DNA of 64,000 nucleotides from Gammaproteobacteria bacterium (GTDB lineage Bacteria; Pseudomonadota; Gammaproteobacteria; UBA4575), in contig CBDCUI010000007.1 of NCBI GenBank assembly GCA_965222615.1, positions 758,885 through 822,884 on the forward strand, read 5' to 3'. A program made the translations under genes and the position numbers. The stretch's first letter is position 1, and each line of letters starts with the position of its first letter. A model generated the notes under the pieces. It was not told the origin of the DNA, did not search any database, and saw only the letters and a program-made list of their open reading frames with translations. This document shows, in pieces, positions 29,932 through 64,000 of this stretch.

Positions 29932-30060
29932 TAAGCAGCATCAAAAATGATTGCTTTCGTCCAATAGCAATGGTATGGCCTCCCTCAACTTTAAACGGCA
30001 TCGTAATGTGCCCATACTGGAAGCGATAGAACCAGTTACTTTGAATAAAGGAGACCATAC

Positions 30061-31095
30061 ATGAACAAGATTACACGCATGGGTGTGGATTTGGCAAAGC
30101 ATGTTTTTCAACTACACGGGGTGGATCGCACGGGAAAGTGCGTATTCAAACGACGCTTATCTCGAAGCAAGTGGCTTAAGGTATTAGTGGAGCATGTTGA
30201 ACCGGGTGGTGAGATTGGCATGGAGGCCTGTTCGGGTGCACACCACTGGGCTCGTGTATTACAACAACGAGGCTATGTGGTGAAATTGATTGCACCCCAG
30301 TTTGTAAAGCCTTATGTAAAGAGCAACAAGAATGATGCCAACGATGCCGAAGCCATTTGCGAAGCCATGAGTCGCCCCAACATGCGCTTTGTCACGATCA
30401 AAAGTATTGAACAGCAAGACATTCAGGCCCTGCATCGTGTGCGTAATACTTTGGTGCAACAACGCACCGCTAAAGCCAATCAGATTCGAGGCTTAGTGAG
30501 TGAATATGGCTTAGTCGCACCCCAACAGTTACATCGATTACGCGCTGCAATACCGACTTGGTTAGAAGACGGAGAGAATGGCTTAACGCCACACTTTCGT
30601 TCTTTACTACAGGGACTTCAACATGACGTACTAACATTAGATGCGCGTGTAAAAGAACTTGATCAAACGATTGAACAACAGGCCAAACAAAACGAAGTCA
30701 CCAAGCGTCTACAACAGCTACGAGGGGTCGGGCCGATGGTGGCCACAGCATTGATTGCCACGGTAGGCGATGCCAAACAATACAAGAGCAGTCGCCAGAT
30801 GGCGGCAGCCTTAGGCTTAACCCCCAGACAACACAGTTCAGGCAATAAAGAGCGTTTACTGGAAATCAGTAAACGCGGCGATGCCTATCTGCGCACCTTA
30901 CTCATTCACGGAGCAAGGGCTGTCGTCTCGCAAGCGAAACATAAAGAGGATCGATTGAGTCAGTGGGTCACGCATCTTTCTAAAACCAAACATACGAATG
31001 TGGCCGCTGTCGCACTGGCGAATAAAACCGTGCGTATGGCATTTGCAATGTTGCGAGATGAAAGTGAATATGATCCGAACTTTGCGCTTATGTGA
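30061..31095 (+). CDS. IS110-family transposase/recombinase (A)
   Basis: DEDD RuvC-like motifs GVDLAK, MEAC, KNDANDA; HSSG serine loop; AVALANK. Confidence 0.95.
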   Translation: MNKITRMGVDLAKHVFQLHGVDRTGKCVFKRRLSRSKWLKVLVEHVEPGGEIGMEACSGAHHWARVLQQRGYVVKLIAPQFVKPYVKSNKNDANDAEAICEAMSRPNMRFVTIKSIEQQDIQALHRVRNTLVQQRTAKANQIRGLVSEYGLVAPQQLHRLRAAIPTWLEDGENGLTPHFRSLLQGLQHDVLTLDARVKELDQTIEQQAKQNEVTKRLQQLRGVGPMVATALIATVGDAKQYKSSRQMAAALGLTPRQHSSGNKERLLEISKRGDAYLRTLLIHGARAVVSQAKHKEDRLSQWVTHLSKTKHTNVAAVALANKTVRMAFAMLRDESEYDPNFALM

Positions 31096-31139
31096 AATAA
31101 AACAATTAACGAAATTACATGTACTTACACTTAAGAGGA

Positions 31140-31350
31140 TTATCTACCACGATTGCAAAGTAATTTATTAGATGGCAAACCGGTCGAACCGACCTAAGCG
31201 TAACCCGTGAATGTCCAGGTACTTCGAGTACGTAATAGCGATTGGGTGCTTAGGTGCGAATACACCATCCTGGCCCAGCATCAACGCTTGCTATCAATAG
31301 AGGCCGAATATACGTGTGCAGTCGACTCTACTTTGTCATTGAATATTTTG
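31140..31350 (+). ncRNA. Predicted bridge/seekRNA of element A
   Basis: Stem ACCTAAGC/GCTTAGGT enclosing GAATGTCC and AATAGCG (target matches); second loop with ACCAT and ATATAC (circle-junction matches); ends approximate. Confidence 0.8.
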
Positions 31351-31391
31351 CTTGCAAACGGAGGGAGGCCATATACGGACATTTTATAAAT

Positions 31392-39221: not shown

Positions 39222-39896
39222 ATGCAATCCAAAATAATCGCCATCGTTACAACTGTGATTTGTATTGCCTTGTTAGCCAATTGGGCTTGGTCTGAGAAAT
39301 CTGACGGAGAAGTCGAAGTCGACAGTCAGCATGCTAAGGCCATTTTTGCTGGGGGTTGTTTTTGGTGTATGGAACCACCATTCGACAAATTGGATGGGGT
39401 CTTGTCAACGGTATCAGGCTATACCGGGGGCCACACTGAAAATCCTACTTATAAACAGGTGTCATCTGATATTACGGGTCATTATGAAGTCGTCGAGGTT
39501 ACCTACGACCCCAATAAAATTGATTATGCAACGTTGCTAAATGTTTTTTGGCATAACGTTGACCCATTAAATGATCGGGGGCAGTTTTGTGATAATGGAA
39601 ATAGTTATCGCACAGCGATATTTTATTTAAATGATGAGCAAAAAAAACTCGCCGAAAATTCAAAACAAGAACTCATGGAATCAAACTATTTCAAAGATGA
39701 GATTGTAACGGTGATAGAAGCTGCAAAAACATTTTATCCAGCCGAGGATTATCATCAGAATTATTACCAAGTGAACCCTATTCGTTACAAATACTACCGT
39801 TTTGCATGTGGCCGTGATAAACGCCTTAAAGAGTTATGGGGGGGATCTGCTGGAAAAGCTGGTCCATTGATACCATCTTTAGATCTCGCACACTAG
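39222..39896 (+). CDS. msrA: Exported peptide-methionine (S)-S-oxide reductase
   Basis: Signal peptide, FAGGCFWC, AEDYHQ; last 16 aa come from the repeat unit. Confidence 0.95.
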   Translation: MQSKIIAIVTTVICIALLANWAWSEKSDGEVEVDSQHAKAIFAGGCFWCMEPPFDKLDGVLSTVSGYTGGHTENPTYKQVSSDITGHYEVVEVTYDPNKIDYATLLNVFWHNVDPLNDRGQFCDNGNSYRTAIFYLNDEQKKLAENSKQELMESNYFKDEIVTVIEAAKTFYPAEDYHQNYYQVNPIRYKYYRFACGRDKRLKELWGGSAGKAGPLIPSLDLAH

Positions 39897-40228
39897 CCGC
39901 TGCAACTAAGGCTGGTCCGTTAATACCAACCACTGGTCTCGCACGTTAATCACTGCTGGAAAAGCTGGTCCATTAATACCATCTTTAGAACTCGCACACT
40001 AACCGCTGCAACCAAGGCGGGGCCATTAGTCCCAACAACAGGTCTTGCACGTTAATTGCTGCTACGAAAGCGGGACCACTTGTACCAACCATTGACCCGG
40101 CACATTAATCGCTGCAACCAAGGCGGGGCTATTAGTCCCAACAACAGGTCTTGCACGTTAATTGCTGCTACGAAAGTAGGACCACTTGTACTAACCACCG
40201 ACCACGCACACTAACCGCTGCAACCAGG
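39846..40228 (+). repeat. Tandem array of 7 full plus 1 partial diverged 53-bp units
   Basis: Units start at 39846, 39899, 39952, 40005, 40058, 40111, 40164, 40217. Confidence 0.9.
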
Positions 40229-40349
40229 GGGGTCGCCTGTGCCGCACTTAAGCCTAGTAAATTAATTGCCACAACTTATCGACAAACGTGTGAAATCGAT
40301 CGCTATTCTTGCTAGACATTTCCCATAAAATTAATTAATCTACCTACTA

Positions 40350-54625: not shown

Positions 54626-54770
54626 AATAAGAGGCTTTGAATTTAGATTATAATGAATGTCTGCATTCGGCCAATAGCAATGGTATGGCCTCCCTCTACT
54701 TTAAACGGCATCGCAATGTGCCCAAACTGGAAGCGATTATAACCAGTCAGTAAAAGAAGGAGACCATACA

Positions 54771-55805
54771 ATGAACAAGGTTACACGCATGGGTGTCGAT
54801 TTGGCAAAGAATGTTTTTCAATTACACGGCGTAGATCGCACGGGAAAGTGTGTTTTTAAACGACGCTTGAGTCGAAGTAAGTGGATCGATACGTTGTGTG
54901 CTGCAGCCGAATCGGATTGTGAGATTGGGATGGAAGCCTGTAGCGGTGCGCATCACTGGGCACGGATATTAAAACAACGTGGCTATGTCGTAAAACTCAT
55001 TGCTCCCCAGTTTGTAAAGCCCTATGTAAAAAGCAACAAGAATGATGCCAAGGATGCTGAAGCGATCTGTGAAGCCATGAGTCGTCCTAACATGCGATTT
55101 GTAACCATGAAGAGCATTGAACAACAAGACCTTCAAGCCATGCATCGTGTTCGCAGTACTTTAGTGCAACAACGTACCGCCAAAGCCAATCAAATACGCG
55201 GCTTGGTGAGTGAATACGGCCTGGTCGCACCACAACAACTGCATACCTTACGCAAAACAATTCCCACTTGGTTGGAAGATGCTGAGAATGGTTTAACGGA
55301 TTGTTTTCGGTCTTTATTGCAAGGGCTGTGGAATGATTTCATCGGATTACATCAGCGTGTACAAGAATTAGATCAAGCGATCGAACACTTCGCGAAACAA
55401 AACGAAGTAACAACCCGGTTACAGCAATTACGTGGCGTAGGACCAATGGTAGCCACCGCTTTGATTGCAACTGTCGGGGATGCAAAACAATATAGAAATA
55501 GTCGTCAGATGGCCGCATCTTTAGGGTTAACGCCCAGACAACATAGCTCAGGCAACAAAGAACATTTACTCGGCATCAGTAAACGTGGCGATGCCTATCT
55601 ACGCACCTTACTCATCCATGGAGCACGTGCTGTGGTCTCGCAAGCCAAACATAAAGAGGATCGTTTAAGTCGCTGGGGGACTAATCTTGCAGAGCAAAAA
55701 CATACGAATGTGGCCGCGGTGGCACTGGCGAATAAAACTGTACGCATGGCATTTGCCATGCTACGTAATGGAACCGATTATGATCCTGCGTTGGCAGTAA
55801 CCTAA
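54771..55805 (+). CDS. IS110-family transposase (A')
   Basis: GVDLAK, MEAC, KNDAKDA, HSSG, GISKRG. Confidence 0.95.
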   Translation: MNKVTRMGVDLAKNVFQLHGVDRTGKCVFKRRLSRSKWIDTLCAAAESDCEIGMEACSGAHHWARILKQRGYVVKLIAPQFVKPYVKSNKNDAKDAEAICEAMSRPNMRFVTMKSIEQQDLQAMHRVRSTLVQQRTAKANQIRGLVSEYGLVAPQQLHTLRKTIPTWLEDAENGLTDCFRSLLQGLWNDFIGLHQRVQELDQAIEHFAKQNEVTTRLQQLRGVGPMVATALIATVGDAKQYRNSRQMAASLGLTPRQHSSGNKEHLLGISKRGDAYLRTLLIHGARAVVSQAKHKEDRLSRWGTNLAEQKHTNVAAVALANKTVRMAFAMLRNGTDYDPALAVT

Positions 55806-55834
55806 AAACAAAATAACGATACTTAAGGAAATTC

Positions 55835-56040
55835 ACATCACGATTGCGAAGTAATCTATTAGATGGTAAACCGGTCGAACCGGTGCAAGTGAAACTCGAG
55901 AATGTCCGTGTACGGTACAGTACGTAATAGCGATTGAGAGCTTGCGCGCGAATACACCATCATGGCCCAGCATCAACGTATGCTAACCATTGAGGCCGAA
56001 TATACGTGTGCAGTCGACCTTGCTTTGCCAAACAATATTT
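55835..56040 (+). ncRNA. Predicted bridge/seekRNA of A'
   Basis: Guides GAATGTCCG (55900-55908) and AATAGCG (55926-55932); stems covary with element A; ends approximate. Confidence 0.8.
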
Positions 56041-56092
56041 TACTTGCATTATGAGGGAGGCCATATACGGTCATTCAAAATAAGATAGTAAT

Positions 56093-56554: not shown

Positions 56555-57785
56555 TGCCGATTCAATTGATCATCGCAACACATTGGCTAAATCGTTCTGC
56601 CGGTGTTTCAAATTCTAATGTTTTCCTAGGTCGCTCATTAAGTTGGCGAGCAACCGCATTGAGTTTGTGTTGAGAGTGTACCGATAAATCTGTGCCTTTG
56701 GGGAAATACTGACGAAGTAGTAGATTTGTATTTTCATTGGAGCCTCGTTGCCACGGACTTTGTGGATCACAGAAGTATACTTTGATGTCTGTCGCTAAGG
56801 TAAAGCGTTGGTGATCTGCCATCTCTTTGCCGCGATCCCAGGTTAAGGATTGATACAGTTCACTTGGTAGTTTTTTTGATTGTTTGATGAGTGCATTGAT
56901 GACGCTCTTGGTATCTTTGTTTTTGACTTTCACCAACATCACATAGCGTGTATGTCGCTCAACCAAGGTAGCAATGTAACTGTTGTTTGAGCCTGCAATG
57001 AGATCCCCTTCCCAATGCCCTGGCACGGCGCGATCCTCCACCGATGCCGGACGTTGTCGAATGGATACGGCATTCGTAATTTGACCTAAACCTTCATTTT
57101 TCAAACTGGCTTGCTTTGACTGTCGTAAGGTACGTTGCGTGCGCAGATACACAAGTAACTCCTTTTTCAGGGCGCCACGCGCTTGAATAAACAGACTGCG
57201 ATAAATCGTTTCGTGTGACACGGTCTTACTCTCATCATGGGGATGGGTACGTTTTAGCCAACCCGCAATTTGTTCTGGGGACCAGTGTAATTGCAGTTTG
57301 GTTACCACGACATAACACAAGTAGGGATTCGTAGCGAGTTTACACGCTTTCGGGCGACGCGCTCGATTCCACGCAGCTTGCTCCGCTTCGCTCGCACGAT
57401 ACGTCACAACGCCGCCATTGCGCTGAATCTCGCGGCTAATCGTGGAAGGTGAACGCTTCAATTGTTTGGCAATCTGTCGCATGGATAAGTCACAAGCGAG
57501 TCCACGAGAAATTTCTTCGCGTTCCGATAACGTCAGACTGAGTCGTGATCGTGTTCGTTGAGGAGGACGAATGCCACCTGTTTGTGCAAGTATCCGTCGT
57601 ATCGATGAGTGCCCACGGTCAAAAAGTCGAGCAATAGCGTGTAGAGAGTCGCCTTGCTGCCAGCGATCCCACATCACCTGTTTCTGTGCTTCGCTATAAT
57701 AAATGCGTGTTCGATATTTCATCGTTTTCACCCCATCTTCTTTGTGTTTTAAGATAAAGTGTTGCGATGATCAATTGAATCGGCA
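56555..57785 (-). mobile_element. IS30-family element (1231 bp)
   Basis: Perfect 26-bp terminal IR TGCCGATTCAATTGATCATCGCAACA; 2-bp flanks GT/GC. Confidence 0.92.
56562..57731 (-). CDS. IS30-family DDE transposase
   Basis: RSPSTISREI, WSPEQI, GHWEGDL, TWDRGKE, PWQRGSNENTN. Confidence 0.96.
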   Translation of the reverse strand: MKTMKYRTRIYYSEAQKQVMWDRWQQGDSLHAIARLFDRGHSSIRRILAQTGGIRPPQRTRSRLSLTLSEREEISRGLACDLSMRQIAKQLKRSPSTISREIQRNGGVVTYRASEAEQAAWNRARRPKACKLATNPYLCYVVVTKLQLHWSPEQIAGWLKRTHPHDESKTVSHETIYRSLFIQARGALKKELLVYLRTQRTLRQSKQASLKNEGLGQITNAVSIRQRPASVEDRAVPGHWEGDLIAGSNNSYIATLVERHTRYVMLVKVKNKDTKSVINALIKQSKKLPSELYQSLTWDRGKEMADHQRFTLATDIKVYFCDPQSPWQRGSNENTNLLLRQYFPKGTDLSVHSQHKLNAVARQLNERPRKTLEFETPAERFSQCVAMIN

Positions 57786-57828
57786 GCCGTTAGCAGACAC
57801 AATTCAAACTAAATAACGGGAATCTAGG

Positions 57829-57857
57829 TTGGAAACTCTAAATAACAATTCTAAAAT
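57829..57857 (+). promoter_or_regulatory. Linker promoter 1
   Basis: TTGGAA-N17-TAAAAT. Confidence 0.6.
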
Positions 57858-57943
57858 GACTGCTTACGACCCAATGTATGGACACCTCCAAGCTAAGCAA
57901 TTAGTTTGTGTGGTGTTAGAAACACAAAAGAAGGAGTCCATAC

Positions 57944-58987
57944 ATGAAACATCTAAACATAGTTGGCGTTGATTTAGCAAAAAACGTAATCCAAGTTTGC
58001 GTGATGCGCGCGCAGCGACAAGAAGTAATCAATCGTTCCTATAGTCGTACTAAATTTGCAGTATTTCTCGTTAAACAACAGCGCAGTGTCATCGCCTTTG
58101 AAGCATGTGCCAGTAGTCATTATTGGGCACGAAAAGCCAAAGCATTGGGGCATACCATCAAAATCATTCCGGCAAAAGCGATCACACCGTATCGTCAAGG
58201 CCATAAAACCGATATCAATGATGCCCGCGCGATCGCTGAAGCGGCGAGCCGTCCCCACCTACTTGAAGCCCCATTAAAGAGTGTTGAACAACAAGGCTTG
58301 CAAGCCGTACAACGTTCAAGAGAGCTTTTGGTACAAGAGCGAACCGGTCTATCCAACCACATCCGTGGCATATTGATGGAATTTGGCATCGTCATTCCTA
58401 AAGGCTTTGCCGCCTTGCATCAACAGATACCCGAGGTACTAGAAGATGGGGAGAACGAGCTACCCGATCTATATCGCCCGACGTTACAGATATTGTACGA
58501 ACGCTTAGTGCAACTCAAAACAACCATCACGATACTTGATCAACAAATTGCCGCCCTCATCAAACAACATCCAGGTTGCGAAACGCTCATGAAGATAGAA
58601 GGTGTGGGCCCAATCAGTGCGATATTACTGTATGCCAGCCTTGGTAGTGGCGATGCGTTTAGCCAAGGTAGACAATATGCGGCGTACTTAGGGTTAACGC
58701 CCAAGCAATACAGCAGTGGCGGGAAAACGAATCTTATTGGGATAAGTAAAAAGGTTGCGAATAAACGTTTGCGCTCCGTACTCATTCAAGGAGCACGTGC
58801 TTATGTGCACAAGCTCAAAGAACCGAAAAGCCAAAAAGATCGCTGGCTGCTGGCACTGATTGAACGTGCCGGCTATGGCAAGGCGGCGGTAGCGTTAGCC
58901 AACAAAAATGTGCGCACCGCATGGGCCATGCTGACCCGGGGGACAACGTACAATAAACAACATACAACCACGATGCACATTGCATAA
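57944..58987 (+). CDS. IS110-family transposase (B)
   Basis: GVDLAK, FEAC, KTDINDA, YSSGGK, GISK, AVALANK. Confidence 0.95.
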   Translation: MKHLNIVGVDLAKNVIQVCVMRAQRQEVINRSYSRTKFAVFLVKQQRSVIAFEACASSHYWARKAKALGHTIKIIPAKAITPYRQGHKTDINDARAIAEAASRPHLLEAPLKSVEQQGLQAVQRSRELLVQERTGLSNHIRGILMEFGIVIPKGFAALHQQIPEVLEDGENELPDLYRPTLQILYERLVQLKTTITILDQQIAALIKQHPGCETLMKIEGVGPISAILLYASLGSGDAFSQGRQYAAYLGLTPKQYSSGGKTNLIGISKKVANKRLRSVLIQGARAYVHKLKEPKSQKDRWLLALIERAGYGKAAVALANKNVRTAWAMLTRGTTYNKQHTTTMHIA

Positions 58988-59009
58988 AAACAAAACCAAG
59001 ACACTACGT

Positions 59010-59205
59010 TACATAAAAGTGTAGAAGAGGTTAGGCAAGTAGACCTAGGTAAAGAATAAAGAGATTCGCTTCGATGAAACCTGCTCCGCTTTGAGGATAA
59101 ATAGAATCCATCGACCCAATGAGGCATCGAAGTGCGCATACATACAGGGCTAGAAGATCGCAACTTCACGAAAAAGCCGAATATACATCTGCGTCTTTTT
59201 CTTTA
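59010..59205 (+). ncRNA. Predicted bridge/seekRNA of element B
   Basis: Stem CTTCGATG/CATCGAAG enclosing TCCGCTTTG and ATCGACCCAA; donor loop CATACAT/ATATACA; ends approximate. Confidence 0.85.
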
Positions 59206-59309
59206 TCAATTTCTGTTTGCTAAACTGGCGGTGTCCATATACAAAGCGGACATTTCAGAGTTTAAACAAACGCAGTGATATCCACGTAAAAATACATGGT
59301 ATTTCAGTT

Positions 59310-60017
59310 ATGTTTAATAAATTAATAGTTTCAATCCTGGTTTTGTTGCTTTGCGCTTGTGGCAACGAAGTTGACTCTGAGGTTAGCTCTGAAGTTGATT
59401 ACTATGAATTTGATTTCACAAACAAAGAAAAGACAGAAAAGATTACTTTACGATTTAGTAATGCTAACGTTTCTAGATTTCCAGGATGGGAGCATGATCG
59501 CAATAGACGCGTGTCTGTTTCATTGTGGTATCCATCATTATTAGATGCGGCTTCTCCAAATGTTTGGATGTCAAAAAGTGAAGAGCAAGAAAAGCTGAGT
59601 ACCAAGCCAAATCCTGAAGATAGAAAAATCAATTTAAGAGTTGGCGCTTCCAGTAGTAATACTATCCTAGACCCTAGTATGACTCTTGAAGAGAAAACGA
59701 CATTTCATTGTCATATTGATGGCAGACTTAAAAAATTCTCGGAAGACGGACAAGCCGGTAATTTTTATCGTTATAAGTTTACTGAAGAGACTAAACCCCC
59801 AAGAATTCATTACCTATACCACCCAATCGAAAAAATAAAAGGGATATATTGTATAAAGTGTAATGGAACAACTTGCCAGCTAATTGGAATAACTGATTTT
59901 GGTGTAAGTTATACAGCTCTTGAAAGTTATGTTGAAGGGAGAATGGTAGATGAAGCAATAGAAATTCATGGGGGTATTAATGAATATCTACAAAATAAGG
60001 TTGTTACGAGCAAATAA
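59310..60017 (+). CDS. Hypothetical lipoprotein (cassette)
   Basis: MFNKLIVSILVLLLCA-C lipobox; the ORF-track start at 59217 lies inside the IS end. Confidence 0.75.
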   Translation: MFNKLIVSILVLLLCACGNEVDSEVSSEVDYYEFDFTNKEKTEKITLRFSNANVSRFPGWEHDRNRRVSVSLWYPSLLDAASPNVWMSKSEEQEKLSTKPNPEDRKINLRVGASSSNTILDPSMTLEEKTTFHCHIDGRLKKFSEDGQAGNFYRYKFTEETKPPRIHYLYHPIEKIKGIYCIKCNGTTCQLIGITDFGVSYTALESYVEGRMVDEAIEIHGGINEYLQNKVVTSK

Positions 60018-60058
60018 TTATTAAATTGATAATAGAAGGAAAGACTGCTTTGGATGTC

Positions 60059-60086
60059 ATGTCCGCTAATGGCCGAAAGCGGTCAT
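60059..60086 (+). repeat. Intact 28-bp site (downstream type)
   Basis: ATGTCCGCTAA-TGGCCG-AAAGCGGTCAT. Confidence 0.85.
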
Positions 60087-60114
60087 AATTTAAATCTTTA
60101 TAAGGGAAAATTGG

Positions 60115-60143
60115 TTGGAAACTCAAATATCAAGTTCTAAAAC
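60115..60143 (+). promoter_or_regulatory. Linker promoter 2
   Basis: TTGGAA-N17-TAAAAC. Confidence 0.5.
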
Positions 60144-60169
60144 GACTGCTAACGACCCAAAGCGGACAT
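60142..60169 (+). repeat. Intact 28-bp site (upstream type; empty target for element B)
   Basis: ACGACTGCTAA-CGACCC-AAAGCGGACAT. Confidence 0.85.
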
Positions 60170-60184
60170 TTTAAATTTAATGAA

Positions 60185-60406
60185 ATGGCAACTGAACAAC
60201 TAACTTTTATTCTATTCAGTTTAGTTTGGTTCTTGATAGGTATTGGTCTCATATTTGTAAAAATAGATGCTGATAATCTGAAATCCAAATCTCATGCTAT
60301 GCCAGGACTTGCATTGTTTCGATTTTCTTTGTTCAGATGGGGAGCAGTATTAGTTTGTATTATTGGTAGCACAATATTTTTGTTATTGGGCCTTCGTTGG
60401 TTATAA
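60185..60406 (+). CDS. Small 2-TM membrane protein (cassette)
   Basis: 73 aa, fills the space between two sites. Confidence 0.7.
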   Translation: MATEQLTFILFSLVWFLIGIGLIFVKIDADNLKSKSHAMPGLALFRFSLFRWGAVLVCIIGSTIFLLLGLRWL

Positions 60407-60445
60407 AATCGAATGACCGTATATGGCCTCCCTCCGTTTGCAAGC

Positions 60446-60656
60446 AAAATATTCAATGACAAAGTAGAGTCGACTGCACACGTATATTCGGCCTCTATTG
60501 ATAGCAAGCGTTGATGCTGGGCCAGGATGGTGTATTCGCACCTAAGCACCCAATCGCTATTACGTACTCGAAGTACCTGGACATTCACGGGTTACGCTTA
60601 GGTCGGTTCGACCGGTTTGCCATCTAATAAATTACTTTGCAATCGTGGTAGATAAT
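60446..60656 (-). ncRNA. Predicted bridge/seekRNA of element A, copy 2
   Basis: Reverse complement of 31140-31350. Confidence 0.8.
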
Positions 60657-60699
60657 CCTCTTAAGTGTAAGTACATGTAATTTCGTTAATTGTTTTATT

Positions 60700-61734
60700 T
60701 CACATAAGCGCAAAGTTCGGATCATATTCACTTTCATCTCGCAACATTGCAAATGCCATACGCACGGTTTTATTCGCCAGTGCGACAGCGGCCACATTCG
60801 TATGTTTGGTTTTAGAAAGATGCGTGACCCACTGACTCAATCGATCCTCTTTATGTTTCGCTTGCGAGACGACAGCCCTTGCTCCGTGAATGAGTAAGGT
60901 GCGCAGATAGGCATCGCCGCGTTTACTGATTTCCAGTAAACGCTCTTTATTGCCTGAACTGTGTTGTCTGGGGGTTAAGCCTAAGGCTGCCGCCATCTGG
61001 CGACTGCTCTTGTATTGTTTGGCATCGCCTACCGTGGCAATCAATGCTGTGGCCACCATCGGCCCGACCCCTCGTAGCTGTTGTAGACGCTTGGTGACTT
61101 CGTTTTGTTTGGCCTGTTGTTCAATCGTTTGATCAAGTTCTTTTACACGCGCATCTAATGTTAGTACGTCATGTTGAAGTCCCTGTAGTAAAGAACGAAA
61201 GTGTGGCGTTAAGCCATTCTCTCCGTCTTCTAACCAAGTCGGTATTGCAGCGCGTAATCGATGTAACTGTTGGGGTGCGACTAAGCCATATTCACTCACT
61301 AAGCCTCGAATCTGATTGGCTTTAGCGGTGCGTTGTTGCACCAAAGTATTACGCACACGATGCAGGGCCTGAATGTCTTGCTGTTCAATACTTTTGATCG
61401 TGACAAAGCGCATGTTGGGGCGACTCATGGCTTCGCAAATGGCTTCGGCATCGTTGGCATCATTCTTGTTGCTCTTTACATAAGGCTTTACAAACTGGGG
61501 TGCAATCAATTTCACCACATAGCCTCGTTGTTGTAATACACGAGCCCAGTGGTGTGCACCCGAACAGGCCTCCATGCCAATCTCACCACCCGGTTCAACA
61601 TGCTCCACTAATACCTTAAGCCACTTGCTTCGAGATAAGCGTCGTTTGAATACGCACTTTCCCGTGCGATCCACCCCGTGTAGTTGAAAAACATGCTTTG
61701 CCAAATCCACACCCATGCGTGTAATCTTGTTCAT
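60700..61734 (-). CDS. IS110-family transposase (A)
   Basis: Translation identical to 30061..31095. Confidence 0.95.
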   Translation of the reverse strand: MNKITRMGVDLAKHVFQLHGVDRTGKCVFKRRLSRSKWLKVLVEHVEPGGEIGMEACSGAHHWARVLQQRGYVVKLIAPQFVKPYVKSNKNDANDAEAICEAMSRPNMRFVTIKSIEQQDIQALHRVRNTLVQQRTAKANQIRGLVSEYGLVAPQQLHRLRAAIPTWLEDGENGLTPHFRSLLQGLQHDVLTLDARVKELDQTIEQQAKQNEVTKRLQQLRGVGPMVATALIATVGDAKQYKSSRQMAAALGLTPRQHSSGNKERLLEISKRGDAYLRTLLIHGARAVVSQAKHKEDRLSQWVTHLSKTKHTNVAAVALANKTVRMAFAMLRDESEYDPNFALM

Positions 61735-61866
61735 GTATGGTCTCCTTTATTCAAAGTAACTGGTTCTATCGCTTCCAGTATGGGCACATTACGATGCCGT
61801 TTAAAGTTGAGGGAGGCCATACCATTGCTATTGGCCGAAAGCGGACAAAATCTAAAGGGAAACTGG

Positions 61867-61895
61867 TTGGATTCAATGAAATACAAACTTAAAAT
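61867..61895 (+). promoter_or_regulatory. Linker promoter 3
   Basis: TTGGAT-N17-TAAAAT. Confidence 0.6.
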
Positions 61896-61981
61896 GTCTC
61901 CTTACGACCCAATGTATGGACACCTCCAAGCTAAGCAATTAGTTTGTGTGGTGTTAGAAACACAAAAGAAGGAGTCCATAC

Positions 61982-63025
61982 ATGAAACATCTAAACATAG
62001 TTGGCGTTGATTTAGCAAAAAACGTAATCCAAGTTTGCGTGATGCGCGCGCAGCGACAAGAAGTAATCAATCGTTCCTATAGTCGTACTAAATTTGCAGT
62101 ATTTCTCGTTAAACAACAGCGCAGTGTCATCGCCTTTGAAGCATGTGCCAGTAGTCATTATTGGGCACGAAAAGCCAAAGCATTGGGGCATACCATCAAA
62201 ATCATTCCGGCAAAAGCGATCACACCGTATCGTCAAGGCCATAAAACCGATATCAATGATGCCCGCGCGATCGCTGAAGCGGCGAGCCGTCCCCACCTAC
62301 TTGAAGCCCCATTAAAGAGTGTTGAACAACAAGGCTTGCAAGCCGTACAACGTTCAAGAGAGCTTTTGGTACAAGAGCGAACCGGTCTATCCAACCACAT
62401 CCGTGGCATATTGATGGAATTTGGCATCGTCATTCCTAAAGGCTTTGCCGCCTTGCATCAACAGATACCCGAGGTACTAGAAGATGGGGAGAACGAGCTA
62501 CCCGATCTATATCGCCCGACGTTACAGATATTGTACGAACGCTTAGTGCAACTCAAAACAACCATCACGATACTTGATCAACAAATTGCCGCCCTCATCA
62601 AACAACATCCAGGTTGCGAAACGCTCATGAAGATAGAAGGTGTGGGCCCAATCAGTGCGATATTACTGTATGCCAGCCTTGGTAGTGGCGATGCGTTTAG
62701 CCAAGGTAGACAATATGCGGCGTACTTAGGGTTAACGCCCAAGCAATACAGCAGTGGCGGGAAAACGAATCTTATTGGGATAAGTAAAAAGGTTGCGAAT
62801 AAACGTTTGCGCTCCGTACTCATTCAAGGAGCACGTGCTTATGTGCACAAGCTCAAAGAACCGAAAAGCCAAAAAGATCGCTGGCTGCTGGCACTGATTG
62901 AACGTGCCGGCTATGGCAAGGCGGCGGTAGCGTTAGCCAACAAAAATGTGCGCACCGCATGGGCCATGCTGACCCGGGGGACAACGTACAATAAACAACA
63001 TACAACCACGATGCACATTGCATAA
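61982..63025 (+). CDS. IS110-family transposase (B)
   Basis: Translation identical to 57944..58987. Confidence 0.95.
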   Translation: MKHLNIVGVDLAKNVIQVCVMRAQRQEVINRSYSRTKFAVFLVKQQRSVIAFEACASSHYWARKAKALGHTIKIIPAKAITPYRQGHKTDINDARAIAEAASRPHLLEAPLKSVEQQGLQAVQRSRELLVQERTGLSNHIRGILMEFGIVIPKGFAALHQQIPEVLEDGENELPDLYRPTLQILYERLVQLKTTITILDQQIAALIKQHPGCETLMKIEGVGPISAILLYASLGSGDAFSQGRQYAAYLGLTPKQYSSGGKTNLIGISKKVANKRLRSVLIQGARAYVHKLKEPKSQKDRWLLALIERAGYGKAAVALANKNVRTAWAMLTRGTTYNKQHTTTMHIA

Positions 63026-63047
63026 AAACAAAACCAAGACACTACGT

Positions 63048-63243
63048 TACATAAAAGTGTAGAAGAGGTTAGGCAAGTAGACCTAGGTAAAGAATAAAGA
63101 GATTCGCTTCGATGAAACCTGCTCCGCTTTGAGGATAAATAGAATCCATCGACCCAATGAGGCATCGAAGTGCGCATACATACAGGGCTAGAAGATCGCA
63201 ACTTCACGAAAAAGCCGAATATACATCTGCGTCTTTTTCTTTA
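63048..63243 (+). ncRNA. Predicted bridge/seekRNA of element B, copy 2
   Basis: Same sequence as 59010-59205. Confidence 0.85.
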
Positions 63244-63302
63244 TCAATTTCTGTTTGCTAAACTGGCGGTGTCCATATACAAAGCGGACATTTATAAAAT
63301 AA

Positions 63303-63728: not shown

Positions 63729-63745
63729 GACTGCTATCGACCCAA

Positions 63746-64000
63746 TGTATGGACACCTCCAAGCTAAGCAATTAGTTTGTGTGGTGTTAGAAACACAAAA
63801 GAAGGAGTCCATACATGAAACATCTAAACATAGTTGGCGTTGATTTAGCAAAAAACGTAATCCAAGTTTGCGTGATGCGCGCGCAGCGACAAGAAGTAAT
63901 CAATCGTTCCTATAGTCGTACTAAATTTGCAGTATTTCTCGTTAAACAACAGCGCAGTGTCATCGCCTTTGAAGCATGTGCCAGTAGTCATTATTGGGCA
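63746..64000 (+). mobile_element. IS1111-type element B, copy 3 (cut by window end; transposase starts 63815)
   Basis: Left end and 5' coding sequence match copies 1 and 2. Confidence 0.9.

Follow-up and report, generated by a model that had tools for sequence, protein, structure and literature searches.

An IS1111-type element with a predicted bispecific guide RNA matching its palindromic insertion site

We consider it likely, with a probability of about 0.88, that Element B, the insertion sequence described here, is an IS1111-type element which is active or was so until recently, and that its recombinase is aimed by a predicted RNA from the 254-nt region downstream of its gene. This reading is built on sequence complementarity, a conserved architecture, covariation of helices and of guides with flanking DNA, and identical copies that are specific for site and orientation, all of which were established in this analysis. 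Element B is a fresh example of the known RNA-guided IS1111 mechanism that was described in 2024, and the knowledge of the mechanism itself is unchanged. It is at the same time a cleanly resolved natural example, with all four predicted guides legible and three empty targets in the same genome.

Results

Element B and its transposase

Copy 1 of Element B is complete and occupies 1367 bp at positions 57875..59241 (+) of the window, by which we mean the whole stretch of 64,000 nucleotides that was analysed. Its ends were placed by comparison of occupied and empty sites, and direct reading of the sequence gives TGTATGG at the left (57875) and CCATATA at the right (59241). The transposase gene (57944..58987, +) encodes a DEDD/IS110-family recombinase of 347 aa, as judged from Pfam, NCBIfam and the translation. 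Pfam recognised an N-terminal DEDD (RuvC-like) domain (PF01548, E = 6.8e-18, residues 7-146) and the C-terminal domain PF02371 (E = 4e-18), the protein scored 312 bits against NCBIfam NF033542 'IS110 family RNA-guided transposase' (cut-off 140), and standard annotation would already name it an RNA-guided IS110-family enzyme. The GL-P----SG motif was found in the translation as GLTPKQYSSG.

The left subterminal inverted repeat ATGGACACCTCC (57878..57889, +) lies 3 nt inside the left end and agrees with the reverse complement of 59227-59238 at 11/12 positions, the first nine of them consecutive. Its right counterpart, 59227-59238, is followed by the 3-nt terminal extension ATA (together 59227..59241, +). 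The repeats ATGGACACC and GGTGTCCAT are accordingly perfect over 9 bp, match at 11/12 positions over the longer repeat and stand 3 nt from each end, which is within the 7-17 bp with short terminal extensions expected of IS1111 subterminal repeats. The non-coding sequence measures 254 nt downstream of the gene (58988-59241) versus 69 nt upstream (57875-57943). The IS1111 group has been defined in PMC11187229 by PF02371 with a GL-P----S(t)G motif in a protein of 330-350 aa, and we place Element B in this group because its motif, subterminal inverted repeats and long downstream non-coding region agree with the definition given there. The IS110/IS1111 assignment, made earlier by a reader from the sequence alone, is thus borne out by both Pfam domains, by the NF033542 score and by the IS1111 hallmarks.

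Copies and insertion sites

In the genome, which comprises 9 contigs and 3.10 Mb, Element B is present in five full copies and one that is cut by a contig end. They are 100% identical wherever sequence is present, and their open reading frames are all intact and identical. Copy 2 (61913..63279, +) is identical to copy 1 and has the same site and orientation; copy 3 (63746..64000, +) is truncated where the window and the contig stop and has ATCGACCCAA as its left flank. Both target and orientation were the same in 6/6 copies. At copy 1 the left half of the target, TACGACCCAA (57865..57874, +), belongs to the loop of a 28-bp palindrome that we call M2, and the right half, CAAAGCGGA (59242..59250, +), consists of a shared C/CAA and the 3' arm of M2, so that this copy stands between ...TACGACCCAA and CAAAGCGGACAT.... 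Over the genome the left flanks were ACGACCCAA three times and TCGACCCAA, ATGACCCAA and GCTACCCAA once each. All six left junctions end in ACCCAA and four carry CGACCCAA, the left half being imperfect at two sites (ATGACCCAA and GCTACCCAA). On the right side CAAAGCGGACA was found at four copies and CAAAGTGGACA at one, the sixth flank being lost at the contig end; the readable right junctions (5/5) start with CAAAG[C/T]GGACA, and the C-to-T change in CAAAGTGGACA still permits a G:T wobble with the guide described below.

An unoccupied target with an intact M2 palindrome, ACGACTGCTAACGACCCAAAGCGGACAT, is present at 60142..60169 (+), as the 3'-terminal part of a bipartite repeat that spans 60058-60169. 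CAA, or at least C, is found on both sides of the occupied site and once in the empty one, and therefore represents a shared core with no true duplication, a point also made by Siddiquee et al. about IS entries that record 'adjacent duplications' (PMC11187229). From the sequence this core may be C, CA or CAA, and one flanking C/CAA unit was counted to Element B. Three perfect unoccupied targets were identified, one in the window (60153-60168) and two elsewhere in the genome (C9:80512-80539 and C9:82172-82199); the empty target at 60142-60169, which the sequence-only reading had pointed out, is therefore real and has company.

The flanks of the copies are unrelated beyond about 20 nt, which identifies the copies as separate insertions. 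Spread of dead passengers by segmental duplication, with the site-specificity as an artefact, would be in line with the clustering of several copies at contig ends in an IS-rich region, but we find it hardly credible: the copies differ at more than about 20 nt from the junctions and involve three contigs, their flanks were checked and are not identical over hundreds of bases, and every open reading frame among them has stayed intact and the same. In addition, the depth of the Element B contig was about 4 to 6x that of its flanks in one metagenome run, as dispersed copies would give. The suggestion of recent activity, which had been based on matching copies, holds for the five full copies and the cut one with their differing flanks.

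The non-coding region of Element B was not found in any of 55/55 other genomes of the same family. The closest transposases, 58-71% identical, occur in other gammaproteobacterial lineages, and the best plasmid-borne match is 47.6% identical, with no close named relative on plasmids. Based on this absence and on these identities, Element B looks recently acquired and subsequently amplified. A search of the genome for a stand-alone copy of the non-coding region returned none, only the five full copies and two short fragments. The fragments (L007 and L008) form a remnant at C9:258242-258332, made up of 30 nt of early non-coding sequence and the terminal 36 nt on the right; with CTAAAACG... as its right flank it lies outside the usual target, and its surroundings are IS-rich. 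A related but different IS1111-type non-coding region was seen in metagenome run X1 (contig record 4, loose end ...CCTTAGAGTCCATCGACCCGAAGAGG...), from which it appears that relatives of Element B co-occur in that sample.

The target-binding module of the predicted RNA

The predicted bridge/seekRNA structural domain spans 59051..59206 (+) according to an RNAalifold consensus of 11 sequences, in which a basal helix (about 59051-59063 with 59193-59206) closes two guide modules. The minimum-energy fold of the window sequence likewise consists of two stem/internal-loop/hairpin modules within a long-range helix and reproduces the stems proposed from the sequence alone; every string and coordinate in that proposal was found base for base. 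The fold does not stand out by its energy, with z = -2.0 over 257 nt and z = -0.3 over the 141-nt core.

The first, target-binding module (59068..59133, +) is predicted to be closed by a stem of 59068-75 with 59126-33, where 5/8 pairs show compensatory changes, followed by CCU/AGG (59080-82/59122-24) and an apical hairpin (59095-59109); the stem strings noted earlier are CTTCGATG (59069-76) and CATCGAAG (59125-32). On one side of the internal loop lies the 5' target guide TCCGCTTTG (59085..59093, +), which complements the top strand directly right of the insertion point: it is the exact reverse complement, 9/9, of CAAAGCGGA at 59242-50, just as had been claimed. On the other side lies the 3' target guide ATCGACCCAA(TG) (59110..59121, +), a sense copy of the left flank that accordingly complements the bottom strand. 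It matches the left flanks of the three window copies over 8 to 10 nt, and here too the earlier count of 10/10 could be repeated at the third insertion (63736-63745, ATCGACCCAA); at the other two (TACGACCCAA) the match is 8/8. The matches of TCCGCTTTG (59085-93) and ATCGACCCAA (59110-19) overlap on CAA.

In a region of 254 nt, TCCGCTTTG would be expected 3.0e-4 times and CGACCCAA 3.5e-3 times by chance; in a looser test, a word of at least 9 nt shared with either strand of the 28-bp site was obtained in 122/5000 shuffles (2.4%). The two matches go far beyond chance, since there are two of them, in opposite senses, both bordering directly on the insertion point and placed opposite one another in a single internal loop. 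A separate observation is that the 3' target guide including its TG (59110-59121) agrees at 12/12 positions with the left junction 63736-63747, that is target plus two element bases, and at 10/12 with the empty site. This is reminiscent of the handshake guides of IS621, which favour the post-exchange state (PMC13626964), and the pattern is inconsistent among the homologues.

The target of Element B is the junction of loop and 3' arm in M2 (ATGACTGCT-AACGACCCAA-AGCGGACAT). A sister palindrome, M1 (ATGACCGCT-ATTGGCCGAA-AGCGGACAT), has the right half (AAAGCGGACAT) in common with M2 and differs in the left half. None of the insertions of Element B (0/6) is in M1, which argues that both halves of the target are read.

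The donor-binding module

The second module (59134..59192, +) has a closing stem (59134-36/59190-92), an inner stem (59148-51/59175-78) and an apical hairpin (59153-59167), the latter two showing compensatory changes. It carries the predicted 5' donor guide CATACAT (59137..59143, +), complementary to the left end (ATGTATG), and the predicted 3' donor guide ATATACA (59181..59187, +), a sense copy of the right end. Both words are at the places given in the sequence-only reading, which had matched them to a circle junction; as evidence the 7-mers alone are at chance level, as a word of at least 7 nt shared with the junction was obtained in 1910/5000 shuffles.

The window was compared with 10 loci from genomes and 3, more distant, from plasmids. 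In 14/14 loci the longest stretch matching the right end in sense was located 60-69 nt from that end, and the right-end guide follows the end sequence from locus to locus (ATATACA, ATATACG, ATATAAGG, ATATAAG and ACATAAGT). An antisense match to the left end was located 102-107 nt from the right end in 7/9 loci and was not at the expected place in the other two (L021 and L040). The left-end donor guide matches 9/9 in L012 and L019 (CATACATTG) and also in L013, where the left junction is CTATGTATG and the guide CATACATAG. Based on the conserved position and the covariation in relatives, and not on the window's own 7-mers, we accept the second loop as a predicted donor-binding loop.

Covariation in homologues

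Relatives of the transposase were collected from genome contigs, mostly of uncultured gammaproteobacteria, and comprised 17 loci with 34-74% identity over the best matching segment. The alignment consisted of the window and the 10/17 relatives with a recognisable non-coding region; L014, L015, L021, L022 and L024 had no anchor and L020 and L025 gave short matches, and these were left out. On the consensus structure 94.5% of the cells in the 11 sequences were able to pair. Compensatory changes were found in 18/40 pairs as compared to 6.2 +/- 1.7 in shuffles, 0/500 of which reached 18, a significance that is overstated by the small and related set of homologues; controls in which the partner was slid by 1-3 columns are free of this problem and gave 2-6 compensatory pairs.

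Nine loci have a right flank that can be read, and in these the 9-nt 5' guide was also compared with the flanking DNA. It paired with its own right flank at a mean of 7.78/9 positions versus 5.68/9 for the flanks of other loci (permutation p ~0.0003). Guide and flank were exactly complementary (9/9) in the window (TCCGCTTTG/CAAAGCGGA), L011 (TCTGCTATG/CATAGCAGA), L012 (TCCGAAACG/CGTTTCGGA) and L013 (ACCGCTTTG/CAAAGCGGT). In the remaining 5/9 loci the 5' guide had 6-7/9 Watson-Crick pairs, or 7-8/9 with G:U: L016, L017, L019 and L023 had 7/9, rising with G:U to 8/9 in all but L016, which stayed at 7, and L009 had 6/9, which G:U raises to 8/9. Most loci have kept both the 3' guide and the left flank (CGACCCAA), and both become TGACCCT in L013. 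The homologues thus form a natural reprogramming series, with a constant left guide and a right guide that varies in step with the right flank; the term 'natural reprogramming' has been used for ISEc11/ISXne4 (PMC11187229). The site of the L017 homologue reads CTAACGACCCAAAGCGGTCAT, one base off M2, so the target family reaches at least one further genome.

It could be argued that the transposase alone recognises the target, for instance by the hairpin shape of the palindrome, and that the complementary words are incidental or relics of a captured target. The target is indeed a structured palindrome, and mismatches in its left half are tolerated at 2/6 sites. However, the target halves are swapped and stand in opposite senses around the hairpin, unlike a copied site, guide and flank covary in the homologues, as do the helices, and the RNA has been found by experiment to be required in relatives (PMC11187229); we regard recognition by protein only as very unlikely.

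The conserved structure starts directly after the stop codon, and an own promoter was not found in the region, both of which would suit a structured 3' untranslated region, a terminator or a regulatory RNA that controls expression and has no part in targeting. Such a role leaves unexplained why the loop nucleotides track the flanking DNA of each homologue and the element's own ends, and no plus-strand terminator-like site was called in the region either. We give this explanation very little weight. RNA guidance, as originally proposed for this region, is in our view the reading favoured by the covariation of the helices, by that of guide and flank, and by an order of the guides that is the same as in published IS1111 seekRNAs.

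A scan of 57700-59400 against Rfam at E <= 1 returned no family, and inside the non-coding region we found no plus-strand promoter-like or terminator-like sites, with counts at the level of shuffles. No RNA run was among the public runs listed as carrying the element, and in the contigs of four DNA runs neither a circle junction nor an empty-site joint was listed, a result which, coming from contigs, does not count as absence. Just upstream of the left end of Element B, within the repeat, there is a sigma-70-like match, TTGGAA-17-TAAAAT (57829-57857), which judging by its sequence could drive both the transposase gene and the RNA.

Discussion

Taken with the published work, these features suggest how Element B would be directed to its site. 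A structured RNA domain (about 59051-59206) would consist of a basal helix carrying two stem/internal-loop/hairpin modules. In the target module the 5' strand TCCGCTTTG would pair with the top strand directly right of the crossover and the 3' strand ATCGACCCAA with the bottom strand directly left of it, with an overlap on the shared C(AA), and the donor strands CATACAT and ATATACA would read the joined ends of the excised circle likewise. A DEDD/serine recombinase complex would then exchange strands at the shared core, and Element B would thereby be inserted, always in the same orientation, where the loop of the 28-bp palindrome meets its 3' arm. Production of the RNA and its binding by the transposase are inferred from published work on IS1111 elements and IS621, and by the same analogy the element would pass through a circular intermediate with the strand-exchange chemistry of those systems.

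In IS1111 elements the seekRNA is encoded on the downstream side of the transposase gene and co-purifies with the enzyme, and in its guide order the complement of the top strand stands 5' of the complement of the bottom strand, the two overlapping in the target (PMC11187229); the predicted RNA of Element B has the same order and overlap. For 93.0% of the IS1111 elements in ISfinder a bridge RNA was predicted in the right end by Durrant et al., who also reported that donor-binding nucleotides are often located in a multi-loop (PMC11208160). ISPa11, an IS1111-family element of Pseudomonas aeruginosa, targets REP palindromes and its seekRNA was co-purified (Siddiquee et al. 2024, PMC11187229). 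Compared by features, ISPa11 is like Element B in its DEDD transposase of 330-350 aa, subterminal inverted repeats, long downstream non-coding region, guide order and fixed insertion point in a repeated palindrome; it has another target and other guides, and the RNA of Element B is a predicted one. ISPpu9 of Pseudomonas putida, whose transposase gene is followed by that for the small RNA Ssr9 (PMC12288879), is likewise an IS110-family element inserted in a palindrome, REP in its case. The predicted RNA of Element B has the corresponding place after the gene; unlike Element B, ISPpu9 has extra stand-alone copies of its RNA gene.

The bridge RNA of IS621 resembles the predicted RNA in having target and donor internal loops, one guide per strand and a short shared core (PMC11208160), and structures of IS621 excision have been reported (PMC13626964). 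In contrast to IS621, where the RNA is in the left end, the RNA of Element B would come from the right end downstream of the gene; moreover, its guides have the opposite strand order, its subterminal repeats are long, its core is other than CT and the basal helix closes both modules.

The target palindrome is part of a larger repeat. M2 is the 3' module of a bipartite repeat of about 110 bp, made up of M1, about 25 nt, GGTTGGA, about 25 nt and M2, which follows small ORFs in the window (60058-60169, and interrupted upstream of each window copy). In its core the repeat also fits a sigma-70 promoter pattern. The bipartite repeat was present in 9/31 related genomes, the genome of Element B included. 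In its own genome the M2 palindrome pattern is rare, with 11 matches, about 8 of them clearly of the family; in five related genomes the target repeat had at least 28 matches each, often in arrays with a spacing of 0.4-1 kb. One related array that was read through consists of ORF-repeat-ORF-repeat, with M2 conserved to the base. Arrays of the repeat with small unrelated ORFs were seen at L052 (G007:C1:233829-236940), and many sites occur in G001, G002, G006, G007, G009 and G014; the arrays span several genera and their layout is cassette-like.

The sequence-only reading had called the target a cassette site. Small ORFs do alternate with a conserved repeat, and this part of the description stands, whereas the repeat is not a canonical integron attC. 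The attC core consensus is RYYYAAC...GTTRRRY. The genome does have an integron of its own outside the window (G000:C9:391600-398262), with at least four canonical attC sites upstream of intI (C9:397324-398262, 490 bits, above the TIGR02249 cut-off) that are unrelated to the palindromic repeat. These own attC sites read CCTAAC...GTTAGG and the target has no such cores, and for this reason attC was rejected as its identity. It is also countered by the relatives: only 1/5 with the target repeat had an integron integrase above the cut-off, and none was found in the other 4/5 tested repeat-bearing relatives (three single-contig genomes and one in two contigs). The genome of Element B also contains one Y1-transposase gene. 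Pfam scans of the ORFs next to two other sites revealed no transposon genes, and in a search for a Tn7-like context PF08722 and PF09299 had no match in this genome, nor in the control genomes, so that nothing follows from their silence.

A group of IS1111-attC elements (ISKpn4, ISPst6 and ISPa25) is reportedly known from Tetu & Holmes 2008 and Post & Hall 2009. For all three a seekRNA was shown (PMC11187229), and like Element B with its predicted RNA they are of IS1111 type with a seekRNA for one end of a recombination-site-like repeat between gene cassettes; the target of Element B differs from theirs in lacking attC cores.

The bipartite repeat might mark a gene-cassette system that is not an integron, in which a bridge-RNA recombinase shuffles cassettes as composite circles, a speculation that we consider improbable. 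Equally doubtful is the corollary that Elements A and B, programmed for M1 and M2, are more than parasites. Directly repeated copies of Element B bracket whole cassettes (for example 57875-63279) and, if such a system existed, pairs of Element B could excise and move the cassettes between them.

Element A, mentioned above, is a second IS1111-type element, present at 54678-56067 (+), 60420-61827 (-) and, as a variant 84-91% identical, at 29968-31375 (+). Its transposase has 344 aa and scores 350 bits against NF033542, and its ends, CAATGGTATGGCC...GGCCATATA, resemble those of Element B. Its target is M1 on the opposite strand (TTCGGCCAATAG^CGGTCAT). Downstream of its gene, the right flank CGGACATT recurs as its reverse complement AATGTCCG (55901) and the left flank recurs in sense as AATAGC (55926), a guide layout as in Element B.

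An IS30-family element (56555-57785, -; 389 aa, NF033563 292 bits, 27-bp terminal repeats) sits within the loop of an inverted M2-type palindrome, and at five places in the genome its end is found directly next to similar palindromes, reading ACCCAAAGC[A/G]GACA or a close variant, by which a third, unrelated IS family is seen to use the palindromic repeat. Two related IS1111-type elements, A and B, and one IS30 element thus converge on different points of one palindromic repeat, and this convergence explains the pile-up of insertion sequences at the locus. Elsewhere in the window, a tandem array of about seven units with a 53-nt period, 64-82% identical to the reference unit, was observed at 39847-40232.
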